Of a stretch of 64,000 bases of DNA, positions 3,496 through 59,796 are shown piece by piece. The DNA is from an uncultured Bacilli bacterium (GTDB lineage Bacteria > Bacillota_I > Bacilli_A > RF39 > UBA660), in assembly GCA_934167825.1 (NCBI GenBank), contig CAKPLY010000002.1, positions 105,900 to 169,899 on the forward strand. Reading direction: 5' to 3'. The stretch's first letter is position 1. Every line of letters begins with the position of its first letter. Made by a program: the position numbers and the translations under genes. The notes under the pieces are model-generated. The model had not been told where the DNA came from. It ran no database searches and saw nothing but the letters and a program-made list of their open reading frames with translations.

Positions 3496-4161
3496 TTATT
3501 TTATTTCTCTATATACTGCAGTTACTTTTCCTAGTATCATTTCATTTGAAATTATATTTACGTTTATTGTTTGATATTTAGGATTTAATGCTTGTAGGAT
3601 TAATCCTTTGGGATAGCGATATAATCTACGTACTGATAAGATACCACTTTTTATGGCAATTACTATATCATCACCATTGTTATATTCTTTTTCTTTTTTA
3701 AAGTATATTTTATCTCCCTTAGTGTATACTGGTGACATTGAATCATCAAGTAGTTTTATTGATAATTCACTAGTAGTATTTACTGGTTCGTAAGTGGCGT
3801 TTTTATATGAATTAATAATCTTTTCACTTTGTGAAGTTAAGTTTTTGTCGTTTCTTAAGTTAGATATATATTCTTTGATAAATTTTTTCTCAAACATATC
3901 TTTTTCTTTTTTACTCATGGGAATTTCTTCGAATAATTCAGGTGATACATTAAAAATTCTACAAATTTCAAAAAAGATATCATATGGTATGTTTAAGCTT
4001 CCTGTTTCATATTTATGTAATGTTTGTCTGTTTTTTGTATGATTTAAGGCTTTTGATAAGTCTTCGAATGAATAATTATACTTTTGTCTAGATTCTTTTA
4101 ATATTTGACAGACAAAGGGTTTTAATTCTTCACTTACTAAATCCTGTTTTGTTGTTCTCAT
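3496..4161 (-). CDS. XRE-family HTH repressor fused to an S24 (LexA/CI-like) peptidase domain
   Basis: N-terminal HTH (SFEDLSKALNHTKNRQTLHKYETG). C-terminal LDDSMSP...GDDIVIA...GKV resembles the S24 Ser/Lys self-cleavage domain. Confidence 0.7.
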   Translation of the reverse strand: MRTTKQDLVSEELKPFVCQILKESRQKYNYSFEDLSKALNHTKNRQTLHKYETGSLNIPYDIFFEICRIFNVSPELFEEIPMSKKEKDMFEKKFIKEYISNLRNDKNLTSQSEKIINSYKNATYEPVNTTSELSIKLLDDSMSPVYTKGDKIYFKKEKEYNNGDDIVIAIKSGILSVRRLYRYPKGLILQALNPKYQTINVNIISNEMILGKVTAVYREIK

Positions 4162-4176
4162 AATTTACTTCCTTTC

Positions 4177-4836
4177 TTAATCTATTTCATTAACACTGTA
4201 GATTAGTGATGTTCCTAAAAGTGATATTATTAATTTTAGTATGTATCTTATTACTATTAATTCTATTAAGTTAATAAATGGAATTTTAAATAGATAAGAT
4301 ATTAAACAGAATATTGTTGAGTCTATTAATTCTAATATTATTGATGTTAAGGTATTTGATAACCATATTTTATTTTTTATTATTCTAATATTATGATATA
4401 CTACTGATGTTAAATATGCACTTAGTATTAATGACGCTACTGCTGATAGGTATGTTCTACTATTTAAATTAAATACTTCATTATAACTTACACTTAGTTT
4501 TTTATTAATATTACTTACTTGTAATAGAGAGGATGTTTCAAGCAATATATATGTTATTATACTGGTAAATGTAATTAATAACAAGATGTTTTTTATTTCT
4601 TCGGGTCCTTTTTTTTGTATTAATATTTTGGTAATTAATATAATTATTGAACTTATTATGAAAGAATAGTTTATATTCAAGTTAAATATCATTATTTCTT
4701 TATTAGAGAATATGCCTACTAATAAAGTTAGTATTATTAATAACATGTATAGTCCTTCATATTTGTTTTTCTTATATGAATAATAGATTACTAGAAATAG
4801 TATAATTAACTCTATAAATAATAAAAGTATGTTCAT
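4177..4836 (-). CDS. Polytopic membrane protein, paralogue of the upstream gene (shared ...DS(T/V)IF(C/N)L(I/F)(S/A)YLFK... motif)
   Basis: 219 aa, about 6 hydrophobic segments. Start overlaps the upstream stop (ATGA). Possible VUT/DUF165-type transporter, unverified. Confidence 0.55.
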   Translation of the reverse strand: MNILLLFIELIILFLVIYYSYKKNKYEGLYMLLIILTLLVGIFSNKEIMIFNLNINYSFIISSIIILITKILIQKKGPEEIKNILLLITFTSIITYILLETSSLLQVSNINKKLSVSYNEVFNLNSRTYLSAVASLILSAYLTSVVYHNIRIIKNKIWLSNTLTSIILELIDSTIFCLISYLFKIPFINLIELIVIRYILKLIISLLGTSLIYSVNEID

Positions 4837-8321: not shown

Positions 8322-9228
8322 TGCTTTTCCTTTCTTTTAGCATATCTATAAAACTTTCTAATCTTGTTTCTATTCCTATCATTGAATTATTATTATCTAT
8401 TATTAGATTTAGATTTGGTTTATTTATCTTTCTTATTGCGAGTTCATTTACTAAACTATCTATTCCACATGGAAAGGATGATATAAATATTATACCGTCA
8501 TATATTTCTTTGTAGTAATTTACTGCTCCTAATAATTCTTTTTGATATAGAAAATATAATTCTTTAGATAAATCATTAGCGTATTCTAGACTTATTTTAT
8601 GTAGTAATTTATCTGCGTATATTAACTCAATGTCATTATCATATAGATATTTTATTATGTCGTTAGATAAATATTTATCATATAGTATGTATGGATGAGA
8701 TACTAGTAATATTTTAATTTTATTACTGTTAATTTTTTTTAGTTCTTTAGTGTGATTTATATAGTTATTTTGTTTATCTTTCTTTTTTGCAAGTATGTAA
8801 CTATATATTATTTTAAAGATATTTTTTGTTAGTTTTAAACCCATTTTTAAAAATCCAAAGAATTCATATTTAAATTTGGTTACATCAATGTTATAGTCAA
8901 GTATATTTATATCAAATAAGTTTTTTACTATGTCATATGTTCCATTAAATTTTACACATACTTTTTTACCTTTACCATAGTTATCTATTCTTGGTATTAA
9001 GATATAGTCACATTTATCTACTAGAGATGCTACATGCCCAAGATATATTTTAGATGCTAGGCAAGATTCATCTACTGAATATGATTCTCCAAGGGACACT
9101 ATATATGAAGTGGTTTCTTTACTTAGTATGATGTGACAATTTAGGTTTTCAAAAAATGTTTTCCATAATATGTAATATCTATAATATAAGAATGCTCGTG
9201 GTATACCTATTTTAATTTTCTTTGACAT
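8314..9228 (-). CDS. 2-hydroxyacyl-CoA dehydratase-related / DUF2229-like protein (partner of 7254..8321)
   Basis: IGIPRAFLYY..., DESCLASK and SSFPCGIDS motifs, same family flavour. Confidence 0.5.
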   Translation of the reverse strand: MSKKIKIGIPRAFLYYRYYILWKTFFENLNCHIILSKETTSYIVSLGESYSVDESCLASKIYLGHVASLVDKCDYILIPRIDNYGKGKKVCVKFNGTYDIVKNLFDINILDYNIDVTKFKYEFFGFLKMGLKLTKNIFKIIYSYILAKKKDKQNNYINHTKELKKINSNKIKILLVSHPYILYDKYLSNDIIKYLYDNDIELIYADKLLHKISLEYANDLSKELYFLYQKELLGAVNYYKEIYDGIIFISSFPCGIDSLVNELAIRKINKPNLNLIIDNNNSMIGIETRLESFIDMLKERKSNE

Positions 9229-9275
9229 TAATTATTCACCCGTTTAAAGTATATGTAATGTTTTAAAAAAAAGAA

Positions 9276-9719
9276 CTATTCTTCATCTAGTTCTTCTTCA
9301 TCTACAATTGTTAAATCTGATAAATCATCATCTTCATAGTCATCATCTAAATCGTCTAAATCATCTGGTTCTGCATCTCTTTCTTCTTCATTTTCTATTT
9401 CTTCTAGAGACTCATATTCATCAATTTCATCATCTTTTTCTTCATAGATATCATCCATATCTATTTTTACCTTATGATTTTGTTTTAAATCCCAGTTTCC
9501 ATCACTAAGCAAGATAAAATCTTTTGATGTTGTTAGAGATTCAAAAAAATCTGCAATTTTATCTTGATATTCTGCTTCGCTTAATCCTAGTAAGTTACAT
9601 ACTTCTCTAAATAAGTCTGCAGTATTTTTAGTTGTCTTATTTTCTTCTAAATATAATTTTGCTATTTTTGTATAAGACATTAATTCTAATTCTTCTTTTG
9701 TCATTTTACTTAATTTCAT
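9276..9719 (-). CDS. rpoE: RNA polymerase delta subunit
   Basis: N-terminal HARE-HTH-like domain (YTKIAKLYLEE...FFESLTTSKDFILLSDGNWDLK) followed by a long D/E-rich acidic tail, as in Firmicute RpoE. Confidence 0.8.
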   Translation of the reverse strand: MKLSKMTKEELELMSYTKIAKLYLEENKTTKNTADLFREVCNLLGLSEAEYQDKIADFFESLTTSKDFILLSDGNWDLKQNHKVKIDMDDIYEEKDDEIDEYESLEEIENEEERDAEPDDLDDLDDDYEDDDLSDLTIVDEEELDEE

Positions 9720-9729
9720 AATTTTCCTC

Positions 9730-11211
9730 CTACGAAACTCTTGGTATTATTCCTATTAAATCAAGAGAGTTATTTATTACTATATTAATTGCTAATAGTA
9801 AATTTAAATTTTCTAATGTGTATGAATTATCTTCAGTTATTATATCATAATTTAGTAAATATTCATTAGTAAGACTTGATAATTCATATATATAATTTGC
9901 AATATTATATGGTTTATACTTCAATGTCGAAGTTTTTACTACTTCTCTAAAATCACATAATTTATTTAAGATATCATATGCAAGATCATTATTAATATTA
10001 TTATATTTTTCTACTTTAGATATTTTATTTGGATATGTAGATAATATTTCATATATTTTTTTATATGTGTTTTCTATAAAGTTATAATTGTTTATACTTG
10101 TATTACTTAATGTTATATTATATCTTATTTCATTTATATCTTCTTTATTATTATCTATATTATTTAAAATATCTATGCTTCTTATTTCTAATTTACTTAT
10201 ATCATACTCTAATAATTTTAATACAGGTCTTATAATACTAGCATATTCATTATTATAACATATATCTATTACTCCATCATAGTATTTATTAAATTTATCT
10301 ATATAATATGTAAGTAATATTAAGAAATTTGAATATGTACCATCATTATTTACTAGTACTTTGTCTTTAGTATCCTTTAATATTGTAGTTTTTAGATATA
10401 GTTTATCTTCATCAAAATATGTATATCCTGTCTTATTTAGTTTATTTAGTACACCATCTATTATTTCATTATTATTTATATTATCTATACATATGTAGTT
10501 ATTAAAGTTAATTCTGTAGGCATCTAGATGCTTTTTTAATTTATCTATGATTATTGAAGTGCTTTCTTTTTTAAAGTATTCTATATTTTCATATTGTTTT
10601 CTAGTGTTATATAGTTTATATATATATGATGCTATTTCATACGATAGAGTATTACTATTAGTATAATTATTTATACATAGTGTTTTATATTCTTCTTGAA
10701 CACTAAGTGCAATACTATCTATTTCATTTTGTGTATCTATTATATATAATTCTTTTGTTACTATACTGTTACTATTTTTTAATAGTCTTGCAAAATTATC
10801 TATATATATTATACTGTAAAAGTCTTCGTTAGATAAATTAATAATACTTGATAACTTAATACTTAGGTTTATTTTTTTGTTGTTACATATATTGTTTTTA
10901 CCATAGTTTATATTTTCTTCGATTATTTCTTTTAGTTCTTGTAATAGAAAGTGTTTATCTATTGTTAGTTTCATTATGCCAGGATATAATATTTCTATGT
11001 TTTCTATCATATCTGTTTTTATATTGTTTTTTATTATGTTTGCTATTTCTTCAGGTTTCTTATGAAGTGTTTTTACTAAAGTTATAGCAACATTTGTTTC
11101 GTATGTATAATTATTTATATCTTTTGTAATAGTAAAATCTTCGATAGATACATTTAATGATGTTTGTATAGAATCTTTTATTATTATTTTAAGTTTATCT
11201 TTTATACGCAT
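9730..11211 (-). CDS. Arginyl-tRNA synthetase-like protein lacking HIGH and KMSK signatures (possible pseudo-synthetase)
   Basis: N-terminal Add-1-like region (PEEIANII...ILYPGIMKL). C-terminal DALR-like region (YNIANYIYELSS...LLLAINIVINNSLDLIGI). Core blocks are YIIDTQNEIDSIALSV and VLVNNDGTYSNF. There is no HxGH and no KMSK. Sits after a ywiB-like gene, as argS does in Bacillus. Confidence 0.55.
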   Translation of the reverse strand: MRIKDKLKIIIKDSIQTSLNVSIEDFTITKDINNYTYETNVAITLVKTLHKKPEEIANIIKNNIKTDMIENIEILYPGIMKLTIDKHFLLQELKEIIEENINYGKNNICNNKKINLSIKLSSIINLSNEDFYSIIYIDNFARLLKNSNSIVTKELYIIDTQNEIDSIALSVQEEYKTLCINNYTNSNTLSYEIASYIYKLYNTRKQYENIEYFKKESTSIIIDKLKKHLDAYRINFNNYICIDNINNNEIIDGVLNKLNKTGYTYFDEDKLYLKTTILKDTKDKVLVNNDGTYSNFLILLTYYIDKFNKYYDGVIDICYNNEYASIIRPVLKLLEYDISKLEIRSIDILNNIDNNKEDINEIRYNITLSNTSINNYNFIENTYKKIYEILSTYPNKISKVEKYNNINNDLAYDILNKLCDFREVVKTSTLKYKPYNIANYIYELSSLTNEYLLNYDIITEDNSYTLENLNLLLAINIVINNSLDLIGIIPRVS

Positions 11212-11606
11212 TAAATTCCTCCAATAGTAACTTTATATTCATAAATATTATCATTATCACTTACTTTATATTTTATATATATTTTTTCTGGTATTTCATT
11301 ATTATAAATAATACTCATATCTATTGTTTCTATTGGTATATCTAAACATAAGTTATTTTCTTTTAAATAGTATGAAGATAATTTTGTTTTACCTTTATTA
11401 AATAGCATACCATGTTTAAAGATTTCATTTTCTCTAGTTAATAGTAATGTATCATCTTTTATATATATAGTGTGTGTGATATTGTCTTTATTATATGTTA
11501 TTTTATTTTTATTGATTATACAATATTCATTTATTGGATTAGTACTTTTTTCTGTTATATTTTTTATATTTCCTTGTATTTTCTTTTTTATTTTTTTCAC
11601 CACCAA
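11211..11606 (-). CDS. DUF1934 (YwiB-like) beta-barrel protein
   Basis: 131 aa, position immediately upstream of the argS-like gene. Call rests on size and synteny. TTG/GTG start. Confidence 0.45.
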   Translation of the reverse strand: MVVKKIKKKIQGNIKNITEKSTNPINEYCIINKNKITYNKDNITHTIYIKDDTLLLTRENEIFKHGMLFNKGKTKLSSYYLKENNLCLDIPIETIDMSIIYNNEIPEKIYIKYKVSDNDNIYEYKVTIGGI

Positions 11607-13751: not shown

Positions 13752-15398
13752 TTATTTTAAAATTTTAATTGACATTTCATAGTCGTTAGCGTTGTCTTTT
13801 TCTTCAAGAGTTATTTTGTATCCACTGTTTTCTAATAATGGTATTAGGTTTCTTATCATATTTACTGCTGGTATAACGTCTACTTTTACCGCAGGTTGTA
13901 TGCTTTGTTCGTTATTAATTGGTCCTGTTGGTATATTAAATTCTGGAATTGGATTTGGTTGTGATACTGGCTCTTGTGGTGTTGGTTCTGGCATTACAGG
14001 ACTAGTTGGCATACTAAACTCTGGTAGCGGTGAAACTTGTGGCTGTTGTGCCATTTCTTGTTGAGGCGCTACTTCGGGTTGTGGCATTGATGGAACTGGT
14101 GGAATATTAAATTCTGGAACTGGATTTGGTTGTGGTGCTGGTTCTTGTGGTGTAAGTTCAGGCATTACAGGACTTGTTGGCATACTATATTCTGGAAGTG
14201 GTGAAACTTGTGGTTGTTGTACCATTTCTTGTTGAGGCACTACTTCTGGTTGTGGCATTGATGGAACTGGTGGAATATTAAATTCTGGAACTGGATTTGG
14301 TTGTGATACTGAATCTTGTGGTGTAAGTTCAGGCATTACAGGACTTGTTGGCATACTAAATTCAGGAAGCGGTGAAACTTGTGGTTGGTGTACCATTTCT
14401 TGTTGAGGTGCTACTTCGGGTTGTGACATTGATGGAACTGTTGTAGATATATTATTAGTATTATTTTCTACAGGAACTTCAAAATTTAGTGGTTGTTCTT
14501 CTAATGATGGGAAAAATGCAGAAGGTGAGGGTTCTACAACTTTATTACCTATAATTGCAGATGGCTCACTAGTTGCATACATTTCTTGTTTAGGTTGTTC
14601 CTTTAATAAATTGTTATATTGGTTAAAATTAAATTGGTTATTATTATCCATAGTTTTATTCTCCTTTTTATTCTTTTTTACTTCTTGTTCTTCTAGAAAA
14701 TCTATTTTATTTAATTCTTTTAATTTTACTTTATCTTGATTTTCTAACTCTTTATCTTTTAGTGATTCTTGTTCTTCTTCTTGTTTTATTAAATCATTAA
14801 AACTTACTTCTTTTTTATTTACTATTTCTTCAAGTGATTTTACTGTTAGTCTTTCTTTTAATATTCTTTCTAAAAGTAATGATTGTTCTTCTTTTGGTAC
14901 TTTTGTTAAAATTTTTGCGTGTCCTAAAGATATTTTTTTTCTTAATAGGGAGTCTTCTACTAAAGGGGTTAGTTTTAATAATTCTAGTTTGTTTTTTATA
15001 TCTTTTTCATTTGTATTTAGTTTACTAGATAATTTTTTTATTGTCATTTTATCTAATAATTTACTATATATTTTTGCTTCTTCTAGGGGAGTTAATGAAT
15101 TTTCATTTTCTAATAATGACAATATTATTGCATCTTCTTTTGATAAATCTAATACTACTGATGGTACATCTTTAATATATAATTTTTTTGCAACTCTATA
15201 CCTTTTTTCACCATCAATTAGTTCATAGTCATTATTATCTTTTCTTAGTGTTAATGGTTTTATAAATCCATATTTTTTTATAGAAAATGATAAGTTATCT
15301 AAGTCTTTTTTATCAATATATACTCTTGGTTGATATGAGTTTGATTTAATTTTATCTATGTTTATATATTTGATATTTATATATTCATTCATAATCAA
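13752..15398 (-). CDS. Divergent ParB/Noc-family protein with Pro/Gln-rich triple-repeat linker
   Basis: ParB N-domain (SYQPR...ELIDGEKRYRVAKK), HTH (...NKLELLKLTP...ISLGHAKIL), E/K-rich segment, 3 x 57-aa P/Q repeats, short C-terminal domain. Occupies the noc position next to rsmG. Confidence 0.8.
   Translation of the reverse strand: MIMNEYINIKYINIDKIKSNSYQPRVYIDKKDLDNLSFSIKKYGFIKPLTLRKDNNDYELIDGEKRYRVAKKLYIKDVPSVVLDLSKEDAIILSLLENENSLTPLEEAKIYSKLLDKMTIKKLSSKLNTNEKDIKNKLELLKLTPLVEDSLLRKKISLGHAKILTKVPKEEQSLLLERILKERLTVKSLEEIVNKKEVSFNDLIKQEEEQESLKDKELENQDKVKLKELNKIDFLEEQEVKKNKKENKTMDNNNQFNFNQYNNLLKEQPKQEMYATSEPSAIIGNKVVEPSPSAFFPSLEEQPLNFEVPVENNTNNISTTVPSMSQPEVAPQQEMVHQPQVSPLPEFSMPTSPVMPELTPQDSVSQPNPVPEFNIPPVPSMPQPEVVPQQEMVQQPQVSPLPEYSMPTSPVMPELTPQEPAPQPNPVPEFNIPPVPSMPQPEVAPQQEMAQQPQVSPLPEFSMPTSPVMPEPTPQEPVSQPNPIPEFNIPTGPINNEQSIQPAVKVDVIPAVNMIRNLIPLLENSGYKITLEEKDNANDYEMSIKILK
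13933..14445. repeat. Three tandem 171-bp (57-codon) in-frame repeats inside the ParB-like gene
   Basis: The unit starting atattaaattctggaa... recurs at 13933, 14104 and 14275 (period exactly 171 bp), with high identity by eye. Confidence 0.9.
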
Positions 15399-21714: not shown

Positions 21715-23475
21715 ATGTTTAAGGAAATAACTGCAATTAGTAAAAATTACGCAATTGTTAAGATTTCTAAAGGAATTAATGAGGATATACTTAATTTAAA
21801 TGCTATATTTGAAGAACGTAATAAAAAGATACTAGGAGAAATTGAAGAAATTATTGATGATACTGTTAAGATAAGCTTTTTAGGAGAGTTTATTGACGGA
21901 AAATTTTATAGTGGGATTATTAGAAAACCTAGTTTAACTTCCAATGTTAGATTAATTAATACAGATGAGTTAAATGAACTTGTTGGGGTTAATGATAGAT
22001 ATTCGATGATGCTTGGTTTATCTCCTTTATATAATAATTATCCTATTAGAATTAATATAGATAGAATGTTTAGTAACCATAGTGCTATTTTTGGAAATAC
22101 TGGTTCTGGTAAAACTTTTGGTGTTGCAAGACTTGTACAAAATTTATTTACTATGAAAGATAAAATACCTTTTAATAGTAATTTCTTTATTTTTAATAAT
22201 ACAAGTGAATATGATAATGCTTTTAATAGTATAAATAAGTATAATCCTAATTTTAATTATAAACTATATTCTACAAGTGAAGAAAACGGTAATAATTTAA
22301 TTAAACTTCCTTTATGGTTGTTAAATGTTGATGATTATGCAAATTTACTTGATGCAACACAGTATTCACAACTTACTGTTATTGAGAAAATGTTAAGTTT
22401 AGTATCTGTTTTTGCTAGAAATGATGAAATGTCTCATAAATATAAGAATCATTTAATTGCTAAGGCTATATTATCAGTAATGTATTCTAATCAAATGCCA
22501 GCAAGAATGAGAGATCAAATTTTTACAATTGTAGAAGATTGCCATACTCCTGAACTTAATTTAGATTACGAAGTACCTGGGGTAGGATATACAAGACAAT
22601 TTAGAAAATGTTTTGAACTTGATAGTCAAGGACAGTTTGTCGAAAGAATATTAATAGTGGAGTATATAGAAAAATTTATTGATAATGATACTAAATGGAA
22701 TGAAGATTATGTGCCAACTTATTTTACTTTGGATGACTTAGAGATTGCACTTAACTTTGCATTAATTAGTGAAGGACTTTTACTTAATGAAAAGTCTTAT
22801 GCTGAAGGAATTGCTTTGAAGGTTAAACTTCATACTCTTAATAATAGTTCTAATGCTAAATTTTTTAGCTATCCAAGTTATTGTAATACTGCTCAATTTA
22901 TTTCTAATATTATACTTATAAATAATAATAAGCGTGCTCAAATAATTAATTTTGTACTTGAGGATATAGATGATAGATTTGCTAAGGCTATTGTTAAGGT
23001 TTATTCTAGAATTTTATTTAGATTTACTAAATCAATGGTAAATAGAGGTTCTATGCCTATACATATAATGTTAGAAGAAGCACATAGATATGTTCAAAAA
23101 GATTTAGATAATGAAATACTCGGATATAATATATTTGAGAGAATTGCTAAAGAAGGAAGAAAGTTTGGATTAGTTTTAGACCTTATTACTCAAAGACCTA
23201 CAGAGTTATCAGAAACAGTAATATCTCAATGTAGTAATTTCTTAATTTTTAAGATTAATCATCCTACTGATTTGGATTATATTAGAAAAATGGTTCCTAA
23301 TATAAGTGCAGATGTTATTGAAAAACAAAAGTCTTTGCAATCAGGTACTTGTGTTGCTTTTGGACCGATGATGAAGATTCCTATGATTGTAAAAATGGAA
23401 CTTCCTAATCCAGAACCACAAAGTGCTAATGCTGCTATTTATAAAAATTGGATGATAGAATGGAATAGTAATTAA
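21715..23475 (+). CDS. HerA/DUF87-type P-loop ATPase
   Basis: N-terminal barrel-like region, Walker A GNTGSGKTF, Walker B-like IHIMLEEAHRY, and GRKFGLVLDLITQRP typical of HerA/FtsK-like ATPases. Confidence 0.7.
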   Translation: MFKEITAISKNYAIVKISKGINEDILNLNAIFEERNKKILGEIEEIIDDTVKISFLGEFIDGKFYSGIIRKPSLTSNVRLINTDELNELVGVNDRYSMMLGLSPLYNNYPIRINIDRMFSNHSAIFGNTGSGKTFGVARLVQNLFTMKDKIPFNSNFFIFNNTSEYDNAFNSINKYNPNFNYKLYSTSEENGNNLIKLPLWLLNVDDYANLLDATQYSQLTVIEKMLSLVSVFARNDEMSHKYKNHLIAKAILSVMYSNQMPARMRDQIFTIVEDCHTPELNLDYEVPGVGYTRQFRKCFELDSQGQFVERILIVEYIEKFIDNDTKWNEDYVPTYFTLDDLEIALNFALISEGLLLNEKSYAEGIALKVKLHTLNNSSNAKFFSYPSYCNTAQFISNIILINNNKRAQIINFVLEDIDDRFAKAIVKVYSRILFRFTKSMVNRGSMPIHIMLEEAHRYVQKDLDNEILGYNIFERIAKEGRKFGLVLDLITQRPTELSETVISQCSNFLIFKINHPTDLDYIRKMVPNISADVIEKQKSLQSGTCVAFGPMMKIPMIVKMELPNPEPQSANAAIYKNWMIEWNSN

Positions 23476-23516
23476 GTTTACTATTTTATTTTTTTAAATG
23501 GTTATCAACAAGAGAC

Positions 23517-23755
23517 TGTGGATAACTTTTGAGTTTTCCACAGACTTTTCCACAGTTTATCCACAGGTTAAACACTTATAAAATAAGGAAAAAATTGACT
23601 TTTCCACAGGTAACACCAAAAAATCAACAAAATTTGCTTTCTGTGGAAAACTTTTTCCACAGGTTAGTAAACTGTGGAAACTGTGGATAACTATAACAAA
23701 TCCTTGGAAAATAAGGGTTAAATAATAAAAGTTTTCCACAGGTTGCTGTGGATAA
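23517..23755. promoter_or_regulatory. oriC part 1: cluster of 11 DnaA boxes upstream of dnaA
   Basis: Perfect TTATCCACA/TGTGGATAA at 23517, 23557, 23682 and 23747. One-mismatch TTTTCCACA/TGTGGAAAA at 23534, 23546, 23600, 23642, 23653 and 23732. TGTGGAAAC at 23673. Confidence 0.9.
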
Positions 23756-25264: not shown

Positions 25265-25365
25265 TGTGGATAACCTGTGGATAACTTTTGAGTTTTCCAC
25301 AGGGGCTGTGGAAAAAATTAACCTTATTTTACAAGGGATTAGGTGAGTTTTCCACAGTTTCCACA
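25265..25365. promoter_or_regulatory. oriC part 2: six DnaA boxes between dnaA and dnaN
   Basis: TGTGGATAA at 25265 and 25276, TTTTCCACA at 25293 and 25348, TGTGGAAAA at 25307, GTTTCCACA at 25357. Confidence 0.85.
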
Positions 25366-26577: not shown

Positions 26578-26605
26578 GATTTTAAGCTTAAAATCTGTTT
26601 TTTTT
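26578..26605 (+). terminator. Rho-independent terminator after dnaN
   Basis: gattttaag/cttaaaatc palindromic stem followed by a T8 run. Confidence 0.7.
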
Positions 26606-26681
26606 GCTGTTTTTCGACAAAAAGCGGCATGGATCGACAAATATATATGTTTTAATATTTCACTCGAAAGGGGGCAAAAAA

Positions 26682-27137
26682 ATGACCAATGAATACATTA
26701 TTAATTCAATGACTTTAATGTTAAAGTATATTGATGAGACAAAAACTCTTGTGTATGAAGACGATAGAGAAATTATTGTTGATTTAAATATTTTTGATAT
26801 TGTATCAGGTAGTTGTTATTTTTATGGAAGTACTTATAGTGGTAGAATATTATATAGTAAGTCAGTTTTAAAAACTAATATTAAAGTTCCTATATTTATT
26901 GATTATTTAAATGATATAATTTTATTTCCTACTAAATCTTATAAAAATAAAGATTGTATTTGGATTATTTATAATAATGTAAAAAAATTTGAAAAATATA
27001 AATATGGTTCTAAAATATGTTTTAAAAACAATAAAGAATTTTTTACACCAACATCTTATGAAATTATAGATAGACAAATTTATAATTGTTTAAGATTAGA
27101 AAAAGAAAATAGATTTAAGAAAAATATAAGTATATAA
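26682..27137 (+). CDS. ComK-family protein
   Basis: SCYFYGSTYSGR...KVPIFI...IILFPTKS...DCIWI matches the conserved ComK pattern (C..(F/Y)G.S..GR...K.PI...FPT.S...W). ATG 26682 has RBS AAAGGGGG. Confidence 0.6.
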   Translation: MTNEYIINSMTLMLKYIDETKTLVYEDDREIIVDLNIFDIVSGSCYFYGSTYSGRILYSKSVLKTNIKVPIFIDYLNDIILFPTKSYKNKDCIWIIYNNVKKFEKYKYGSKICFKNNKEFFTPTSYEIIDRQIYNCLRLEKENRFKKNISI

Positions 27138-30358: not shown

Positions 30359-32929
30359 ATGGATAATGAATTAAATAATGAAATAAATAATACTGACAAT
30401 AATATAAGTAATGATATAAATGATTCTTTAGTTAAAGATAATGAAATAAATGATGAGGAAGTAAATAATTTTGGTGGTTCTTTTCATGAAAGAGATAGCT
30501 TAGCAGAAAATAATATTGTAGAAGAGGTTAAAAGGTCATTTTTAGACTATTCTATGAGCGTAATTACCTCTCGTGCTATTCCAGACTTAAGAGATGGTTT
30601 AAAGCCTGTACACAGACGTATTTTGTGGAGTATGTTTAATTCTGGATACACACCAGATAAACCACATAGAAAATCTGCAAAAACAGTTGGTGAGGTTATG
30701 GGTAATTATCATCCTCATGGTGATTCATCAATTTACGAAGCAATGGTAAGAATGGCACAAGATTTTAACCAAAGATATATTTTGATTGATGGACATGGAA
30801 ATTTTGGTAATATTGAGGGAGACGGCGCTGCTGCAATGCGTTATACCGAGTCAAGATTATCAAAACTATCTTTAGAACTTCTTAGAGATATAAGAAAAGA
30901 TACTGTAGACATGGGTAAAAACTTTGATGAAACTTTAGATGAACCTGTCGTTTTACCTAGTAGATTTCCAAATATCTTAGTTAATGGTACAATGGGTATT
31001 GCTGTTGGTATGGCAACAAATATTCCACCTCATAATTTAGGTGAAGTAATTGATGGTTGTGTTGCTTATATTGATAATCCTGATATTGATACTTTAGGTT
31101 TGATGCGATACATTAAGGGACCTGATTTTCCTACTGGTGGGATTATATTAGGAAATTCAGGTATTAAAAAAGCTTATGATACAGGGCGCGGTTCAATTAC
31201 TATAAGAAGTAGGGCAACTATTGAGGAACATAATAATCATAGTCAAATTATTATTACTGAAGTTCCTTATGGTGTAAATACTATGGAACTTAAAAATAAG
31301 GTTGCAGAATTAGTTAGGGATAAAGTTATAGAAGGTATATCTGATTACCATACTGATTTAAAAGATGGTGTAAAAATTACTATAACTCTTAAACGTGAAG
31401 CAAATGCTCAAGTAGTTTTAAATAATTTATATAAACATACTAATTTTCAAATAAGTTATGGTATTATTTTCTTGATGATAGATAATGGTACTCCAAGAAC
31501 ATTAGGATTAAAGGATATAATTTCAAAATATATAGACTATCAAAGAGAAGTTATTATTAGAAGAACTAAATTTGATTTAAATAAAGACGAAAAGAGAGTT
31601 CATATATTAGAAGGTTATAAAATTGCACAAGATAATATTGATGAAGTAATTAGTATTATTAAAAATGCGGAAAGTGATATTGTTGCAAAAGAGCAATTAA
31701 TGGCTAGATTTGGATTTAGTGAGATACAAACAGATGCTATATTAGAATTGAAATTACGTAGATTAACTGGTTTAGAAAGAGAAAAAATTGAGGCTGAATT
31801 GGCAATGTTATTAAAAGAAATAGAAGAACTTAAATCAATTCTAGCTGATGGTCAAAAGGTTTTAAATATAATTAAAGAAGAATTACTTGAAATAAAAGGT
31901 AAATTTGCTGATGAAAGAAGAACTTCTATTGATATGACTGCTATTGATTATATCGAGGACGAATCTTTAATTCCAGTAGAGGATATAGTTATTACTTTAA
32001 CAAATAAGGGATATATCAAGAGATTAAAGGCTGATACTTATAGAACGCAAAATAGAGGCGGTATGGGTATTAAAGGTATGTCTACAAATGAAGAGGATTT
32101 CGTTGAGCATATAATTAATTCTACTACGCATGATTATATATTTATGTTTACAAATAAGGGAAAGGTATACCGTATAAAAGGTTACGAAATACCTGAATAT
32201 AGTAGACAATCTAAAGGTTTACCTGTGATTAATCTTCTAAACTTAGAAAAAGATGAAAAAATAACATCTTTATTAAAGGTTTTAAAAGATGATGATAATA
32301 AATATTTAATATTTGCTACTAAGAGTGGTTTAATAAAACGTACTGATATTACAGAATTTGATAATATTAGAACTAATGGAAAGAAATTTATTACTTTAAA
32401 AGGTGATGATGAGTTAGTTTCTGTTAAGAAAACTACTGGAGAAAACGACATTTTAATGGCTTCTTCTAAAGGAAGAGTTGTTAGATTTAATGAAAATTGT
32501 ATTAGAGTTATGGGACGTTCTGCAGCTGGTGTTAGAGGTATTAACTTAGGTGATGGACATTTGGTTGGTATGGAGATTGCCGTTCCAAATATTGATGTTT
32601 TAGTTGTTACTGAAAAGGGATATGGAAAGAAAACTCCTATCGATGAGTATAGAATTACTAATCGTGGTGGTAAAGGTGTAAAAACATTAAATATAACTGA
32701 GAAAAATGGTAATTTAGTATCTTTAAAAACTGTTACAGATGTTAATGATTTGATGATTATAACTAATATTGGTATTGTTATTAGGTTATCTATTGAAAAA
32801 ATTTCTTCGATGAGTAGAGTTACACAAGGAGTTAAACTTATTAATTTGAAAAATGAACAATTTGTAAGTTCTACAGCAATTATTAACAAAAATGAAGAAG
32901 AATTTAAAGATTTAGAGGAAGAAAATTAA
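30359..32929 (+). CDS. gyrA: DNA gyrase subunit A (with ~45-aa N/D-rich N-terminal extension)
   Basis: DGLKPVHRR, HPHGD, AAAMRYTE (catalytic Tyr), C-terminal beta-pinwheel repeats. Strong RBS AAAGGAGG. Confidence 0.98.
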   Translation: MDNELNNEINNTDNNISNDINDSLVKDNEINDEEVNNFGGSFHERDSLAENNIVEEVKRSFLDYSMSVITSRAIPDLRDGLKPVHRRILWSMFNSGYTPDKPHRKSAKTVGEVMGNYHPHGDSSIYEAMVRMAQDFNQRYILIDGHGNFGNIEGDGAAAMRYTESRLSKLSLELLRDIRKDTVDMGKNFDETLDEPVVLPSRFPNILVNGTMGIAVGMATNIPPHNLGEVIDGCVAYIDNPDIDTLGLMRYIKGPDFPTGGIILGNSGIKKAYDTGRGSITIRSRATIEEHNNHSQIIITEVPYGVNTMELKNKVAELVRDKVIEGISDYHTDLKDGVKITITLKREANAQVVLNNLYKHTNFQISYGIIFLMIDNGTPRTLGLKDIISKYIDYQREVIIRRTKFDLNKDEKRVHILEGYKIAQDNIDEVISIIKNAESDIVAKEQLMARFGFSEIQTDAILELKLRRLTGLEREKIEAELAMLLKEIEELKSILADGQKVLNIIKEELLEIKGKFADERRTSIDMTAIDYIEDESLIPVEDIVITLTNKGYIKRLKADTYRTQNRGGMGIKGMSTNEEDFVEHIINSTTHDYIFMFTNKGKVYRIKGYEIPEYSRQSKGLPVINLLNLEKDEKITSLLKVLKDDDNKYLIFATKSGLIKRTDITEFDNIRTNGKKFITLKGDDELVSVKKTTGENDILMASSKGRVVRFNENCIRVMGRSAAGVRGINLGDGHLVGMEIAVPNIDVLVVTEKGYGKKTPIDEYRITNRGGKGVKTLNITEKNGNLVSLKTVTDVNDLMIITNIGIVIRLSIEKISSMSRVTQGVKLINLKNEQFVSSTAIINKNEEEFKDLEEEN

Positions 32930-32940
32930 TAAAAAGTTGA

Positions 32941-32970
32941 TGAAAACGTGAAAAAAGCGTTTTCATTTTT
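32941..32970 (+). terminator. Rho-independent terminator after gyrA
   Basis: tgaaaacg-tgaaaaaag-cgttttca followed by a T-run. Confidence 0.75.
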
Positions 32971-33055
32971 ATTTTCCCTTGTAATTACATACGCATACAT
33001 TTGTTTGCATGTTGATAACTTTTTTGAATATAGAAATAAATTGTAAATTTATTTT

Positions 33056-33073
33056 ATGTTCCACGTGGAACAT
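33056..33073. promoter_or_regulatory. parS: parS-type site 1
   Basis: Exact 18-mer. Perfect palindrome extends to 28 bp (33051-33078). Confidence 0.85.
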
Positions 33074-33311
33074 AAAATGTTATAATAATTTATGTTTGTG
33101 TTTTATATTTATAATGTTTAAAAGTTTCTTATCTATTTATATAATTTTATCCTGTTGATAAACGTAATATAATTAGTATTATTTTTAAATACATAATCTG
33201 TTGATAGAATAATTTTATTATTTATGATAGGTAAGTAATATATATTTATATAAATTATATGAAGTATTTTTTGATATTAATTACAATATTGAATATTTCT
33301 TTTATAAAATA

Positions 33312-33329
33312 ATGTTCCACGTGGAACAT
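33312..33329. promoter_or_regulatory. parS: parS-type site 2
   Basis: Exact 18-mer with no arm extension. Left boundary of duplication copy A. Confidence 0.85.
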
Positions 33330-33479
33330 AAACAATGGATGTTTATATACAAATATTAAAGCAGTATAATATTTATAGATTATATTTTTTAATAATTCTT
33401 ATAGTTTATTGCTTATTATTTTGTGTATAATAGTTTTATTTGAATACATTAATAATGATGTTTTTGCGTTTTTTATGTC

Positions 33480-33497
33480 ATGTTCCACGTGGAACAT
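33480..33497. promoter_or_regulatory. parS: parS-type site 3
   Basis: Exact 18-mer. Perfect palindrome extends to 38 bp (33470-33507). Confidence 0.85.
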
Positions 33498-33719
33498 GAC
33501 ATAAAAATAAATTTTAATTAAATGTATTTAAGTGATTTAAAAAAAAGAGTTATATTTATTTGTTTAAATTAATATTAATATCATTATTATAGAGCGTTAT
33601 TTTATAATAAATTATTATTATTTTTTTATAAATCGTTGTTTTGATATTATTTTATTAGTAACTGTTAAGAATCTTACTTACGAAAAAATTACATCATTTA
33701 ATTTTTATTTGTCATATTC

Positions 33720-33737
33720 ATGTTCCACGTGGAACAT
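33720..33737. promoter_or_regulatory. parS: parS-type site 4
   Basis: Exact 18-mer. Perfect palindrome extends to 30 bp (33714-33743). Confidence 0.85.
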
Positions 33738-33836
33738 GAATATAGATATATATATAATATTATTTTTAATTAATATTTATTTAATATATGTTTAATTATT
33801 ATTATTTTGTTGTATTTTTTGTATTGATGATTTTTT

Positions 33837-33854
33837 ATGTTCCACGTGGAACAT
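33837..33854. promoter_or_regulatory. parS: parS-type site 5
   Basis: Exact 18-mer. Perfect palindrome extends to 30 bp (33831-33860). Confidence 0.85.
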
Positions 33855-33973
33855 AAAAAAATACTTTAGTTAAGTTTGATTTTGTTAATAAATTTATTTA
33901 ACAAATTTATAACTTATATTTTTCATTAAATTGTTATTATATATTATTTATTATTACTTTTTTGTATATATAT

Positions 33974-33991
33974 ATGTTCCACGTGGAACAT
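33974..33991. promoter_or_regulatory. parS: parS-type site 6
   Basis: Exact 18-mer. Its right flank gacataaaaa equals the right arm of site 3. Confidence 0.85.
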
Positions 33992-34130
33992 GACATAAAA
34001 ATCTTTTGTATGTTAAAATGATTTTTATATTGATAAAATTGTTATTTATATAATATAGAGTACATATTTAGATTATTTTTTTAAGTTAAACTAAAATTTT
34101 TTTGTTGTATTATTTTATTAAATTTTATTT

Positions 34131-34148
34131 ATGTTCCACGTGGAACAT
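34131..34148. promoter_or_regulatory. parS: parS-type site 7
   Basis: Exact 18-mer. Perfect palindrome extends to 30 bp (34125-34154). Left boundary of duplication copy B. Confidence 0.85.
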
Positions 34149-34298
34149 AAATAATGGATGTTTATATACAAATATTAAAGCAGTATAATATTTATAGATT
34201 ATAATTTTTAATAATTCTTATAGTTTGTTGCTTATTATTTTGTGTATAATATTTTTATTTAAATATATTAATAATGATATTTTTATGTTTTTTATGTC

Positions 34299-34316
34299 AT
34301 GTTCCACGTGGAACAT
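34299..34316. promoter_or_regulatory. parS: parS-type site 8
   Basis: Exact 18-mer (22-bp palindrome, 34297-34318). Left flank equals the site 3 arm and right flank equals the site 4 arm, so it is a hybrid. Confidence 0.85.
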
Positions 34317-34432
34317 GAATATGAATATATATGATATTATTTTTAATTAGTATTTATTTAATATGTGTTCAATTATTATTATTTTTTTATATACTCAAAT
34401 CTGTTGTTATATATTTTTATTGGTGTTTTTCT

Positions 34433-34450
34433 ATGTTCCACGTGGAACAT
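34433..34450. promoter_or_regulatory. parS: parS-type site 9
   Basis: Exact 18-mer. Perfect palindrome extends to 32 bp (34426-34457). Confidence 0.85.
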
Positions 34451-34678
34451 AGAAAAAATACTTTAATTAAGTTTAATTTTGTTAATAAATTTATTTAACA
34501 AATTTATAACTTATATTTTTCGTTAAATTGTTATTATATATTATTTATCATTGCTTTTTTGTATATATATATTAAATATTAGTTATTACTGTGTTTGAGT
34601 ATATTGTATTGATTTAGAAAATACTTATTTAACTGTTTTGTAATAACGATTTAAAAAGATGTGCATATATTTTATTTC

Positions 34679-34696
34679 ATGTTCCACGTGGAACAT
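34679..34696. promoter_or_regulatory. parS: parS-type site 10
   Basis: Exact 18-mer. Perfect palindrome extends to 38 bp (34669-34706). Confidence 0.85.
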
Positions 34697-34843
34697 GAAA
34701 TAAAAATTTATATAAAATATTGATTATTTATAAAATATATTGTATTATTAATATGCAACATTAATGTTAGAACCAGGTCAGGAATGGAAATTAGCAGCCT
34801 TAATAACCTCTTAATGTGTGCATTTTTTTTATTTATAATTATT

Positions 34844-34861
34844 ATGTTCCACGTGGAACAT
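34844..34861. promoter_or_regulatory. parS: parS-type site 11
   Basis: Exact 18-mer, ending 18 nt before the tadA ATG. Confidence 0.85.
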
Positions 34862-34879
34862 GGAAAGAGTAGTAGATTT

Positions 34880-35293
34880 ATGAATATTGAATTTTTTAAA
34901 AAAACAATTGAACTTGCTGAAAAAGCCTGTTTTGAAAATGAAGTTCCTGTTGGTGCAGTAGTTGTTAAAGATAATAAAATTATTGGTTGTGGATATAATA
35001 AAAAAGAGCAAACTAAAGATCCTACAATGCATGCTGAATTTATTGCAATTCGCGAGGCATGCAATTTTATTGGTGATTGGAGACTAGATGATTGTGATTT
35101 ATATGTAACATTAAAACCGTGTATGATGTGTTGTGGATTAGTTGTTGAAACACGTATTAGAAATGTATATTATATTTTAGATAAGTGCGAACAATCGTAC
35201 GATAATAAACACCATATTTTACAAGACTTTACGTTAAAAAAGTACTATTTAAATTTATTACAAAATTTTTTTAAGAAATTGAGAAATAAATGA
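34880..35293 (+). CDS. tadA: tRNA-specific adenosine deaminase
   Basis: HAEFIAIREA and PCMMCCG zinc motifs. ATG 34880 has RBS GGAAAGAG. The track ORF start at 34784 would read through parS site 11 and is rejected. Confidence 0.85.
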   Translation: MNIEFFKKTIELAEKACFENEVPVGAVVVKDNKIIGCGYNKKEQTKDPTMHAEFIAIREACNFIGDWRLDDCDLYVTLKPCMMCCGLVVETRIRNVYYILDKCEQSYDNKHHILQDFTLKKYYLNLLQNFFKKLRNK

Positions 35294-58118: not shown

Positions 58119-58943
58119 GTGAATTTAGTGGGAAAAATTATTGCAGTAGTAAATCAAAAAGGTGGCGTTGGAAAAACTACCACAAGTATTAATTTATCTG
58201 CTTCTTTAGGAGTTCTTAAAAAAAAGGTTTTGCTTGTTGATTTGGACCCTCAAGGAAATGCAACAACAGGAGTAGGGATAGACAAGGGTGATATAGAAAG
58301 TAGTGTATATGAAGTATTAGTTATGAAAAGTTCAATAGAGGATGCTATTATTAAGACTAAAAGTAAGAATTTGAGTTTACTTCCAGCATATTTAAATTTA
58401 GCAGGAGTAGAAATGGAACTTATTGAACTAGAAAGAAAATTCAAGGATGAGGGAAAAAACTTTAATCGTGTTGTAAGACTAAAAGAAGAATTATGTAAGG
58501 TTAAAGATAATTATGATTATATTATTATAGATTGTCCACCATCTTTGGGTATTTTAACTACTAATGCTTTGGCGGCAGCAGATTCAGTGCTCATTCCTGT
58601 TCAATGTGAATATTTTGCACTAGAAGGAATTATGCAACTTATAAATACTGTTATGCTTGCACAAAAGAAAGTAAATCCTAAACTTGATATAGAAGGTGTA
58701 CTTCTTACTATGCTTACTTCAAATACTAATTTGGGACTTGAAGTAGTTGAAAGTATTAAGGGATTTTTTAAAGAAAGAGTATATAATACTATTATACCAA
58801 GATTAATTAGACTTGCAGAAGCTCCATCACATGGTAAACCAATTATAGAATATGAACCAAGAAGTAGGGGAACACTTGCATATCTAAATTTAGCAAAGGA
58901 GGTTATAGAAAGAAATGGAACAGAAGAAGAAAGCGTTGGGTAG
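58119..58943 (+). CDS. soj: Chromosome partitioning ATPase ParA/Soj
   Basis: Deviant Walker A NQKGGVGKTT, DLDPQGN, IIDCPPSLG. Confidence 0.95.
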   Translation: MNLVGKIIAVVNQKGGVGKTTTSINLSASLGVLKKKVLLVDLDPQGNATTGVGIDKGDIESSVYEVLVMKSSIEDAIIKTKSKNLSLLPAYLNLAGVEMELIELERKFKDEGKNFNRVVRLKEELCKVKDNYDYIIIDCPPSLGILTTNALAAADSVLIPVQCEYFALEGIMQLINTVMLAQKKVNPKLDIEGVLLTMLTSNTNLGLEVVESIKGFFKERVYNTIIPRLIRLAEAPSHGKPIIEYEPRSRGTLAYLNLAKEVIERNGTEEESVG

Positions 58944-59796
58944 AGGTTTAGAACAACTATTTAGTAGTGAAGTATTGGATTTTGACCAATTTGAAACTAA
59001 TATTATGGAAAATGTAAAAGATAATGACGTTAGAGAGTTGCCAATTACTGATATTAGACCTAATCCATATCAACCAAGAAAGAGTTTTAATGAAGAAGCA
59101 TTAAATGAACTTGCTGAGTCAATTAAAAATTATGGTGTTTTTCAGCCTATTATTGTTAAAAAAAGTATTAAAGGATATGATTTAATTGCAGGAGAAAGAA
59201 GACTTAGGGCATCAAAAATAGCAGGACTTGCAACAATACCTGCGATTATTAAAGATTTTTCAGATGAACAAATGAGAGAAATAGCACTTTTGGAAAACTT
59301 ACAAAGAGAGAATTTAACTCCAATAGAACTTGCTTGGGCATATAAAGGCATTATTGATACTTTACATATTAGACAAGAAGATTTAGCAGACAAAATAGGT
59401 AAGAGTAGGAGTCATGTTACTAATACACTTGGACTTTTAAGATTACCTGAAGAAATACAAAATCAAATACTTGAAAATAAAATTTCTATGGGTCATGCAA
59501 AAATTTTATCTAAAATTGATGATGACTATAAAGTAAAAGAATTTGCTGACAAAATAATTAATAATAATATTAGCGTTAGAGAACTTGAAGAGAAAGTACA
59601 AGATACTGATGTTAAAAAGAAAGTTCCTATAAATAGAAAGATTAAAGTTAGCGACTATGATTATATAGAAAGAGAACTTAGAGATATTTTGGATACTAAG
59701 GTTATTGTTAAGGACAAGAAACTAGAAATTTGTTTTGAAAATGGTAATGATTTAGATAGAATACTAGAAATAATGAACATAAAAATTGAAAAATAG
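58915..59796 (+). CDS. spo0J: Chromosome partitioning protein ParB/Spo0J (canonical)
   Basis: LGRGLEQL, PNPYQPR, GERRLRA arginine patch, ENLQRENLTPIE, HTH KSRSHVTNTLGLLRLP. Confidence 0.95.
   Translation: MEQKKKALGRGLEQLFSSEVLDFDQFETNIMENVKDNDVRELPITDIRPNPYQPRKSFNEEALNELAESIKNYGVFQPIIVKKSIKGYDLIAGERRLRASKIAGLATIPAIIKDFSDEQMREIALLENLQRENLTPIELAWAYKGIIDTLHIRQEDLADKIGKSRSHVTNTLGLLRLPEEIQNQILENKISMGHAKILSKIDDDYKVKEFADKIINNNISVRELEEKVQDTDVKKKVPINRKIKVSDYDYIERELRDILDTKVIVKDKKLEICFENGNDLDRILEIMNIKIEK

Follow-up and report, generated by a model that had tools for sequence, protein, structure and literature searches.

What purpose is served by eleven identical palindromes crowded into one intergenic tract close to a replication origin? 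The question is posed by contig CAKPLY010000002.1 of an uncultured Bacilli bacterium (assembly GCA_934167825.1), of which we analyzed a stretch of 64,000 nucleotides (positions 105,900 to 169,899 of the forward strand), hereafter the window. The tract separates gyrA from tadA, and its palindromes resemble parS, the loading site of the partition protein ParB. We propose that it is the chromosomal centromere, a compact array of eleven parS sites that would load ParB, and assign this reading, which draws on the sequence, a probability of roughly 85%.

The 18-mer ATGTTCCACGTGGAACAT is present in 11 exact copies (33056–34861), and zero copies were obtained in 100 dinucleotide-preserving shuffles of the window. 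Start-to-start spacings between successive sites are 256, 168, 240, 117, 137, 157, 168, 134, 246, and 165 bp. All 11 sites match the 16-bp parS consensus, TGTTNCACGTGNAACA, exactly, with a chance expectation of 0.1 matches at up to two mismatches in 64 kb; at the same tolerance nothing in the window was recovered beyond the 11 array sites, and therefore neither ParB-family gene of the window contains a parS site. Every copy carries the bases, G1 and A6 of the half-site (TG...CAC/GTG...CA), that distinguish parS from Noc-binding sites (PMC7383237), and no Noc-binding-site-like motif (a ATTTCCCGGGAAAT-type palindrome) was found in the window. These results bear out the statements of a preliminary description of this DNA that the copies between gyrA and tadA are free of mismatches, that they are spaced at 117–256 bp, that the motif occurs nowhere else in the 64 kb, spo0J included, and that it is of the parS type. 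The tract is made up as follows:

32930–34879: gyrA–tadA intergenic tract holding the array; GC content 16–19%, against about 25% for the window.
32939–32967 (+): intrinsic-terminator-like hairpin and T-run closing gyrA; left border of the array.
33056–33073: parS site 1; the palindrome grows 5 bp on each side, to 28 bp in total.
33312–33329: parS site 2; without palindromic extension; opens a duplicated block.
33480–33497: parS site 3; center of a 38-bp perfect palindrome (33470–33507), TTTTTATGTC-[18-mer]-GACATAAAAA.
33720–33737: parS site 4; 30-bp palindrome.
33837–33854: parS site 5; 30-bp palindrome.
33974–33991: parS site 6; without extension; right flank the same as that of site 3.
34131–34148: parS site 7; duplicate of site 2; 30-bp palindrome.
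34299–34316: parS site 8; hybrid, flanked on the left as site 3 is and on the right as site 4 is.
34433–34450: parS site 9; corresponds to site 5 within the duplication; 32-bp palindrome.
34679–34696: parS site 10; 36-bp palindrome (34670–34705), 50 bp upstream of the signal recognition particle (SRP) RNA gene.
34747–34832 (+): small SRP RNA gene (ffs), between sites 10 and 11; Rfam match of 61 bits against a gathering score of 40.
34844–34861: parS site 11; without extension; separated by 12 bp from the preceding SRP RNA and by 19 bp from the tadA start codon that follows.

The tract contains no open reading frame (ORF) longer than 55 aa, and a promoter scan was uninformative, yielding fewer promoter-like sites than shuffles did (24 vs 31.4). 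Its earlier characterization as gene-free was wrong by one RNA gene, that of the SRP RNA. Rfam matches to mir-3910 and BSnc120 within the tract lay far under their gathering scores and were dropped (thresholds: gathering score and E ≤ 1).

The window encodes a canonical ParA/ParB pair together with a second ParB-family protein, two in all, as the preliminary description had assumed.

58119–58943 (+): ParA/Soj ATPase, 274 aa, overlapping the start of parB; matches ParA-family NCBIfam models.
58915–59796 (+): canonical ParB/Spo0J, 293 aa; predicted binder of the array.
13752–15398 (−): divergent ParB/Noc-like paralogue, 548 aa, adjoining rsmG; ParB_N and HTH_ParB domains.

The 293-aa ParB is closest to Spo0J of B. 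subtilis (215 bits, PDB 6SDK). It possesses the N-terminal ParA-activating peptide (LGRGL), box II (GERRLRA) and box III (ENLQRE) motifs, and a C-terminal dimerization domain. Its helix-turn-helix reads GKSR...N...SMGHAK, giving the parS-type residues R173 and G201, which are invariant in parS-binding ParBs and are Q and R, respectively, in Noc (Jalal et al., PMC7383237). The ParA protein is about 61% identical to an approximate sequence of B. subtilis Soj, and its assignment rests also on the NCBIfam models. The parA–parB pair lies away from rsmG, 24 kb from the array, and, unlike spo0J of B. subtilis, is devoid of parS.

Possibly, the array could instead be bound mainly by the 548-aa paralogue encoded beside rsmG, which would then assemble a different complex on it, such as a condensate on its Pro/Gln-rich linker. 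This protein combines ParB_N and HTH_ParB domains with a linker of about 270 aa, containing three Pro/Gln-rich repeats of roughly 50–60 aa, and a ParB-like C-terminal domain; it has no assigned target, the window being free of Noc-type palindromes, and its gene is origin-proximal, some 18 kb away from the array. However, it carries NTNE in place of GKSR (ParB) or GKGQ (Noc), so that G170, K171, and S172, residues that ParB and Noc both conserve, are missing and Glu replaces the base-contacting Arg/Gln (PMC7383237). The residues at the positions of Noc Q173/K179/K184/R201 are E/K/K/G; box II reads GEKRYR and box III lacks Arg; the protein's score of 166 bits falls short of the 315 set as the Noc cutoff, and it lacks the N-terminal peptide typical of Noc. 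With a motif-fitting canonical ParB encoded in the same window, we consider the paralogue an unlikely binder of the array, as judged from its residues.

The events predicted for the array follow the established ParABS model, from which its binding, clamp loading, and ParA or SMC roles are derived. Dimers of the 293-aa ParB would recognize each 16-bp palindrome through the helix-turn-helix, bind cytidine triphosphate (CTP), close into clamps, and slide onto flanking DNA, with sliding clearing the site for the next round of loading. Because each site would be freed after each clamp, a concentration of eleven sites in 1.8 kb would let loading at this one point near oriC proceed at a multiple of the single-site rate. 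The resulting ParB–DNA complex would form the cargo for ParA (58119–58943) and would probably also be where SMC enters. A dense ParB loading zone, the function suggested in the preliminary description, thus appears the most plausible role for the tract, given the canonical ParA/ParB pair in the window and the conservation of the sites, but not of the spacers, among related bacteria.

That conservation was assessed in the best 80 loci retrieved by a search with the GyrA C-terminus. These relatives are uncultured gut genomes, at 59–76% identity and labelled Bacilli, Tenericutes, or Erysipelotrichaceae; the species of the window is not among them. Together they contain 370 GTTNCACGTGNAAC core sites, all of which lie within 3 kb downstream of gyrA. 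No core site was found in the 80 relatives in 605 kb upstream of gyrA or beyond 3 kb downstream, nor in 453 kb surrounding the parAB genes of 32 clade members (L208–L239). The detectable parS sites of the clade are therefore limited to the gyrA–ffs spacer and are uncoupled from parAB. In 58 relatives the sequence continues for 3 kb or more past gyrA, and 47 of these have three or more sites, with a maximum of 18. The comparison of the gyrA–tadA interval between relatives, advised in the preliminary description, accordingly finds the sites kept at the same locus and the spacers not: variation within sites is confined to the two N positions of the consensus (C/T and G/A), the outer A and T of the 18-mer are retained in most cases, and alignable segments between species are 18–21 bp long and fall on the sites. 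The order gyrA–[array]–ffs was seen in all eight relatives scanned, with no rRNA operon there; the suggestion that the tract occupies an rRNA-operon slot is thus not upheld.

The position of ffs bears on a further possibility, namely that the sites are operators for another regulator with a CACGTG core, controlling ffs, tadA–dnaX, or gyrA. Sites 10 and 11 do bracket the SRP RNA gene, and the latter is 19 bp upstream of the tadA start codon. However, the other nine sites are far from the promoter of any known gene, conservation covers the full 16–18 bp and extends beyond the CACGTG core, and a site number that ranges from 2 to 18 across species is atypical of an operator. An operator function is accordingly very unlikely.

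Spacing, like number, differs between species. Tandem-repeat searches (TRF) identified regular arrays in L135 (36 bp × 15.4 copies, 9066–9614) and L168 (126 bp × 8.7 copies, 3564–4660), both of which reach the contig end, and the positions of sites in L133, L145, L148, L152, L161, and L167 suggest further periods of 27, 33, 46, and 63–64 bp. The same search of the array of the window returned no period that spans sites.

Could the array, or its copy number, be an artefact of repeat assembly? Among the relatives, 22 contigs terminate less than 3 kb from gyrA, and in 14 of them the break falls no more than 150 bp from a site; short Logan contigs of the species of the window start inside the array. 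The exact TadA protein is encoded on 18 contigs, and three long ones, which come from different samples, reproduce the gyrA–tadA interval (L201–L203). The first is 99.9% identical over 1950 bp and has 11 sites at the same spacings; the second has 10 perfect sites and one variant, and the third 12 sites, the differences being whole units of about 160 bp. These contigs show copy-number variation between strains, and the recovery of 10–12 sites in three independent assemblies argues against an artefact. The spacers are, moreover, divergent enough to assemble, and two relatives with HiFi-assembled chromosomes have 9 and 6 sites. We regard an assembly artefact, against which the preliminary description had cautioned, as extremely improbable.

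The array itself retains traces of its history, among them an internal segmental duplication:

33312–33975: source block of the duplication; its copy, at about 34131–34572, lacks the spacer between sites 3 and 4.

This block of about 0.66 kb, with sites 2–5, recurs as sites 7–9 and is detected as repeats D3 (offset 819), D6 (offset 577), and D5 (offset 597); the 11 sites are therefore not independent. Since the duplicate copy is missing the approximately 240 bp between sites 3 and 4, site 8 joins the flank of site 3 to that of site 4; it records a crossover in which two identical 18-mers recombined and this DNA was lost from the duplicate block. Duplication and unequal crossover between identical sites would be the means by which the array evolves, and would shift its copy number between strains and species.

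A second trace is the growth of the palindromes. Seven of the 11 sites lie within longer perfect palindromes of 28–38 bp, the outer arms of which are site-specific. The mean extension past the 18-mer is 4.64 bp in the window, compared with 1.39 ± 0.70 when right flanks were re-dealt among sites (at most 4.09 over 2000 trials). The relatives average 2.02, compared with 0.66 ± 0.05 in the same control, and L160, L162, and L141 are among the loci showing extension; in the arrays of other phyla described below, measured from the 16-mer and with shuffles within loci, the effect is weaker (1.75 vs 1.27 ± 0.05). The regular tandem arrays of the relatives show no palindromic extension. We prefer an explanation in which template-switch repair at a perfect palindrome extends its arms outward, after which crossovers within the identical cores shuffle the half-flanks, as at sites 6 and 8; alternatively, selection for cruciform formation may be the source of the extension.

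The extended palindromes invite the proposal that the 18-mers are the cores of a structural or mobile repeat, whether of the repetitive extragenic palindrome (REP) or miniature inverted-repeat transposable element (MITE) type, a cruciform, or a terminator, with an incidental likeness to parS. The excess of extension over the re-paired-flank control is in keeping with it, as is a scan with a loose terminator consensus, which two of the 11 sites passed; those two did so owing to T's beyond the A-run. The terminator version was rejected, because on either strand the stem is preceded by a T-run and followed by an A-run, the reverse of what an intrinsic terminator shows. Nor is the element dispersed, as the preliminary description had considered for a REP-like sequence: copies are absent from the remainder of the window, from the 605 kb that precede gyrA in the relatives, and from the 453 kb of parAB loci of the clade. 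The tandem arrays of the relatives keep the 16-mer without any extension, variation is found only at the N positions of the consensus, and the motif is linked to parAB across phyla. A structural or mobile repeat with a merely fortuitous parS core therefore has very little probability, and we retain the parS assignment.

A broader proposal is that the centromere of this clade, whose genomes are small, uncoupled from parAB and fixed in the gyrA–ffs spacer, is a fast-evolving satellite that turns over by unequal crossover, with hairpin-templated repair growing its palindromes. Copy numbers of 0 to 18 are seen among species and of 10 to 12 among strains, and spacing ranges from irregular (117–256 bp) to perfect tandem (27–126 bp). 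We put this forward tentatively, as a possibility that is more doubtful than probable; if true, the clade would constitute a natural experiment on parS clustering and on the number of sites needed.

Dense parS arrays are already known from Myxococcus and are spread over many phyla, and the array of the window is no new kind of system. In B. subtilis, parS sites are mostly intragenic, with one in spo0J. The preliminary description held that chromosomal parS sites are normally scattered across tens to hundreds of kb and the array thus unusual, a view that we found to be overstated: scattered parS is a peculiarity of a few lineages, including the Bacilli, with clustered sites in most bacteria (PMC8357415). 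Listeria has 20–23 parS sites (PMC7333895). M. xanthus has 24 parS sites upstream of parAB (PMC3778016), and a 3.12-kb fragment bearing 22 of its sites, like a single site, is shifted by ParB in gel assays (PMC3899335). When one genome per species was searched for pairs of perfect TGTTCCACGTGGAACA sites 125–155 bp apart, at least 120 loci (L001–L120) from many phyla were recovered. Among the matches listed, at least 10 loci from several other phyla have 11–17 perfect copies of the 16-mer within 0.9–2.2 kb; dense arrays were found in Moraniibacteriota, Bdellovibrionota, Acidobacteriota, Planctomycetota, and other Bacillota, with up to 17 copies in 1.5 kb (for example, L101, L035, L077, L056, L080, L048, and L099). 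A ParB gene was fetched within 8 kb at 19 of the 39 listed loci with six or more sites, the usual order being rsmG–[array]–parA–parB, as in Heliophilum fasciatum and a Lachnospiraceae metagenome-assembled genome (MAG). In a brief literature search we found no description of dense perfect-parS arrays beyond Myxococcus.

Among the closest known counterparts is that of M. xanthus, likewise a dense, origin-proximal, non-coding array of near-identical 16-bp palindromes, the consensus of which, TGTTCCACGTGGAACG (PMC3899335), differs from the 16-mer of the window by one terminal base. In M. xanthus, the high-GC genome measures 9 Mb, and the array immediately precedes parAB at some 30 kb from ori. The array of the window occupies the gyrA–ffs spacer in DNA of about 25% GC, with 24 kb separating it from parAB, and its copies are identical over 18 bp. 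B. subtilis shares with the window the consensus, the protein family, and the class Bacilli; however, its eight sites are distributed over about 0.75 Mb (PMC8357415), while those detected in the window all fall in one 1.8-kb non-coding array, with none in parB. The arrays of other phyla use the same 16-mer as the window but usually stand beside parA–parB. Particular to the window are the position away from parAB, the 18-bp identity of all copies, and the Bacilli lineage.

The sopC locus of the F plasmid comprises 12 tandem 43-bp repeats, each with an inverted repeat bound by SopB. Like the array of the window, it presents many palindromes for a ParB-family protein in a short non-coding stretch, and the regular tandem arrays of the relatives resemble it. 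The array of the window is irregular, chromosomal, built on the chromosomal parS consensus, and 24 kb from parAB; it shows neither the fixed period of sopC nor the parAB-adjacent, extrachromosomal setting. The earlier comparison with a plasmid-style iterated centromere consequently suits the 36-bp and 126-bp tandem arrays of the relatives, and not the irregular spacing found here.

Several points weigh against the assignment of the array as the centromere. The host is uncultured, and binding of ParB to the array is a prediction from sequence. The scan covered 64 kb of the genome, and further parS sites are possible elsewhere. The parAB genes are 24 kb away, unlike those of most dense arrays in other phyla. 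A model of pure ParB binding does not predict the site-specific palindromic extensions. Finally, the gyrA locus is empty of sites in five of the 58 relatives whose flanks are complete, so that the array is dispensable at this position. In L169, a relative devoid of sites, no parS core was found in 17 kb and no alternative repeated palindrome is present; its gyrA–ffs spacer is filled by a 734-aa ORF (9300–11504).

Reviews of ParABS raise two questions: what explains the varying number of parS sites, given that a single one is often enough, and what makes them cluster (PMC7333895). In the 80 relatives, number, spacing, and regularity vary within one fixed slot while the sequence of the site stays constant, which makes for a useful comparative series, and clamp-loading assays in vitro could draw on the locus and its relatives for natural arrays with 1 to 18 sites. 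The array also amends the expectation for Bacilli, which has been centered on B. subtilis. For genome reconstruction, these arrays are frequent contig break points in short-read MAGs.

Turning to the neighborhood of the origin, the genes on the minus strand are ordered rsmG–mnmG–mnmE–jag–yidC–rnpA, and those on the plus strand HerA-like ATPase, dnaA, dnaN, ComK-family ORF, recF, gyrB, gyrA, [array], ffs, tadA, dnaX, ybaB, and recR. The landmarks that place the array are:

23502–23755: DnaA-box cluster upstream of dnaA (left part of oriC).
25265–25356: DnaA-box cluster between dnaA and dnaN (right part of oriC).
30359–32929: gyrA, left flank of the array.
34880–35293: tadA, right flank of the array.

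Cumulative GC skew climbs from about 21 kb. The array is origin-proximal, 7.7–11.4 kb to the right of the DnaA-box clusters; the 8–9.5 kb given previously was close. A second origin inside the tract was considered and rejected, as its four one-mismatch DnaA boxes are at the chance level for AT-rich DNA.

Other genes of the region deserve brief mention. An unusual occupant of the rnpA–dnaA interval is a gene for a HerA/DUF87-type ATPase of 586 aa (21715–23475, +), which precedes the upstream DnaA-box cluster, and a ComK-family ORF of 177 aa (26604–27137, +) lies between dnaN and recF. SpoIVA (261–1073, +) and a BofA-like gene (L201, 9093–9281) are also present, which suggests that the host, a small and very AT-rich gut bacterium, is an endospore former.

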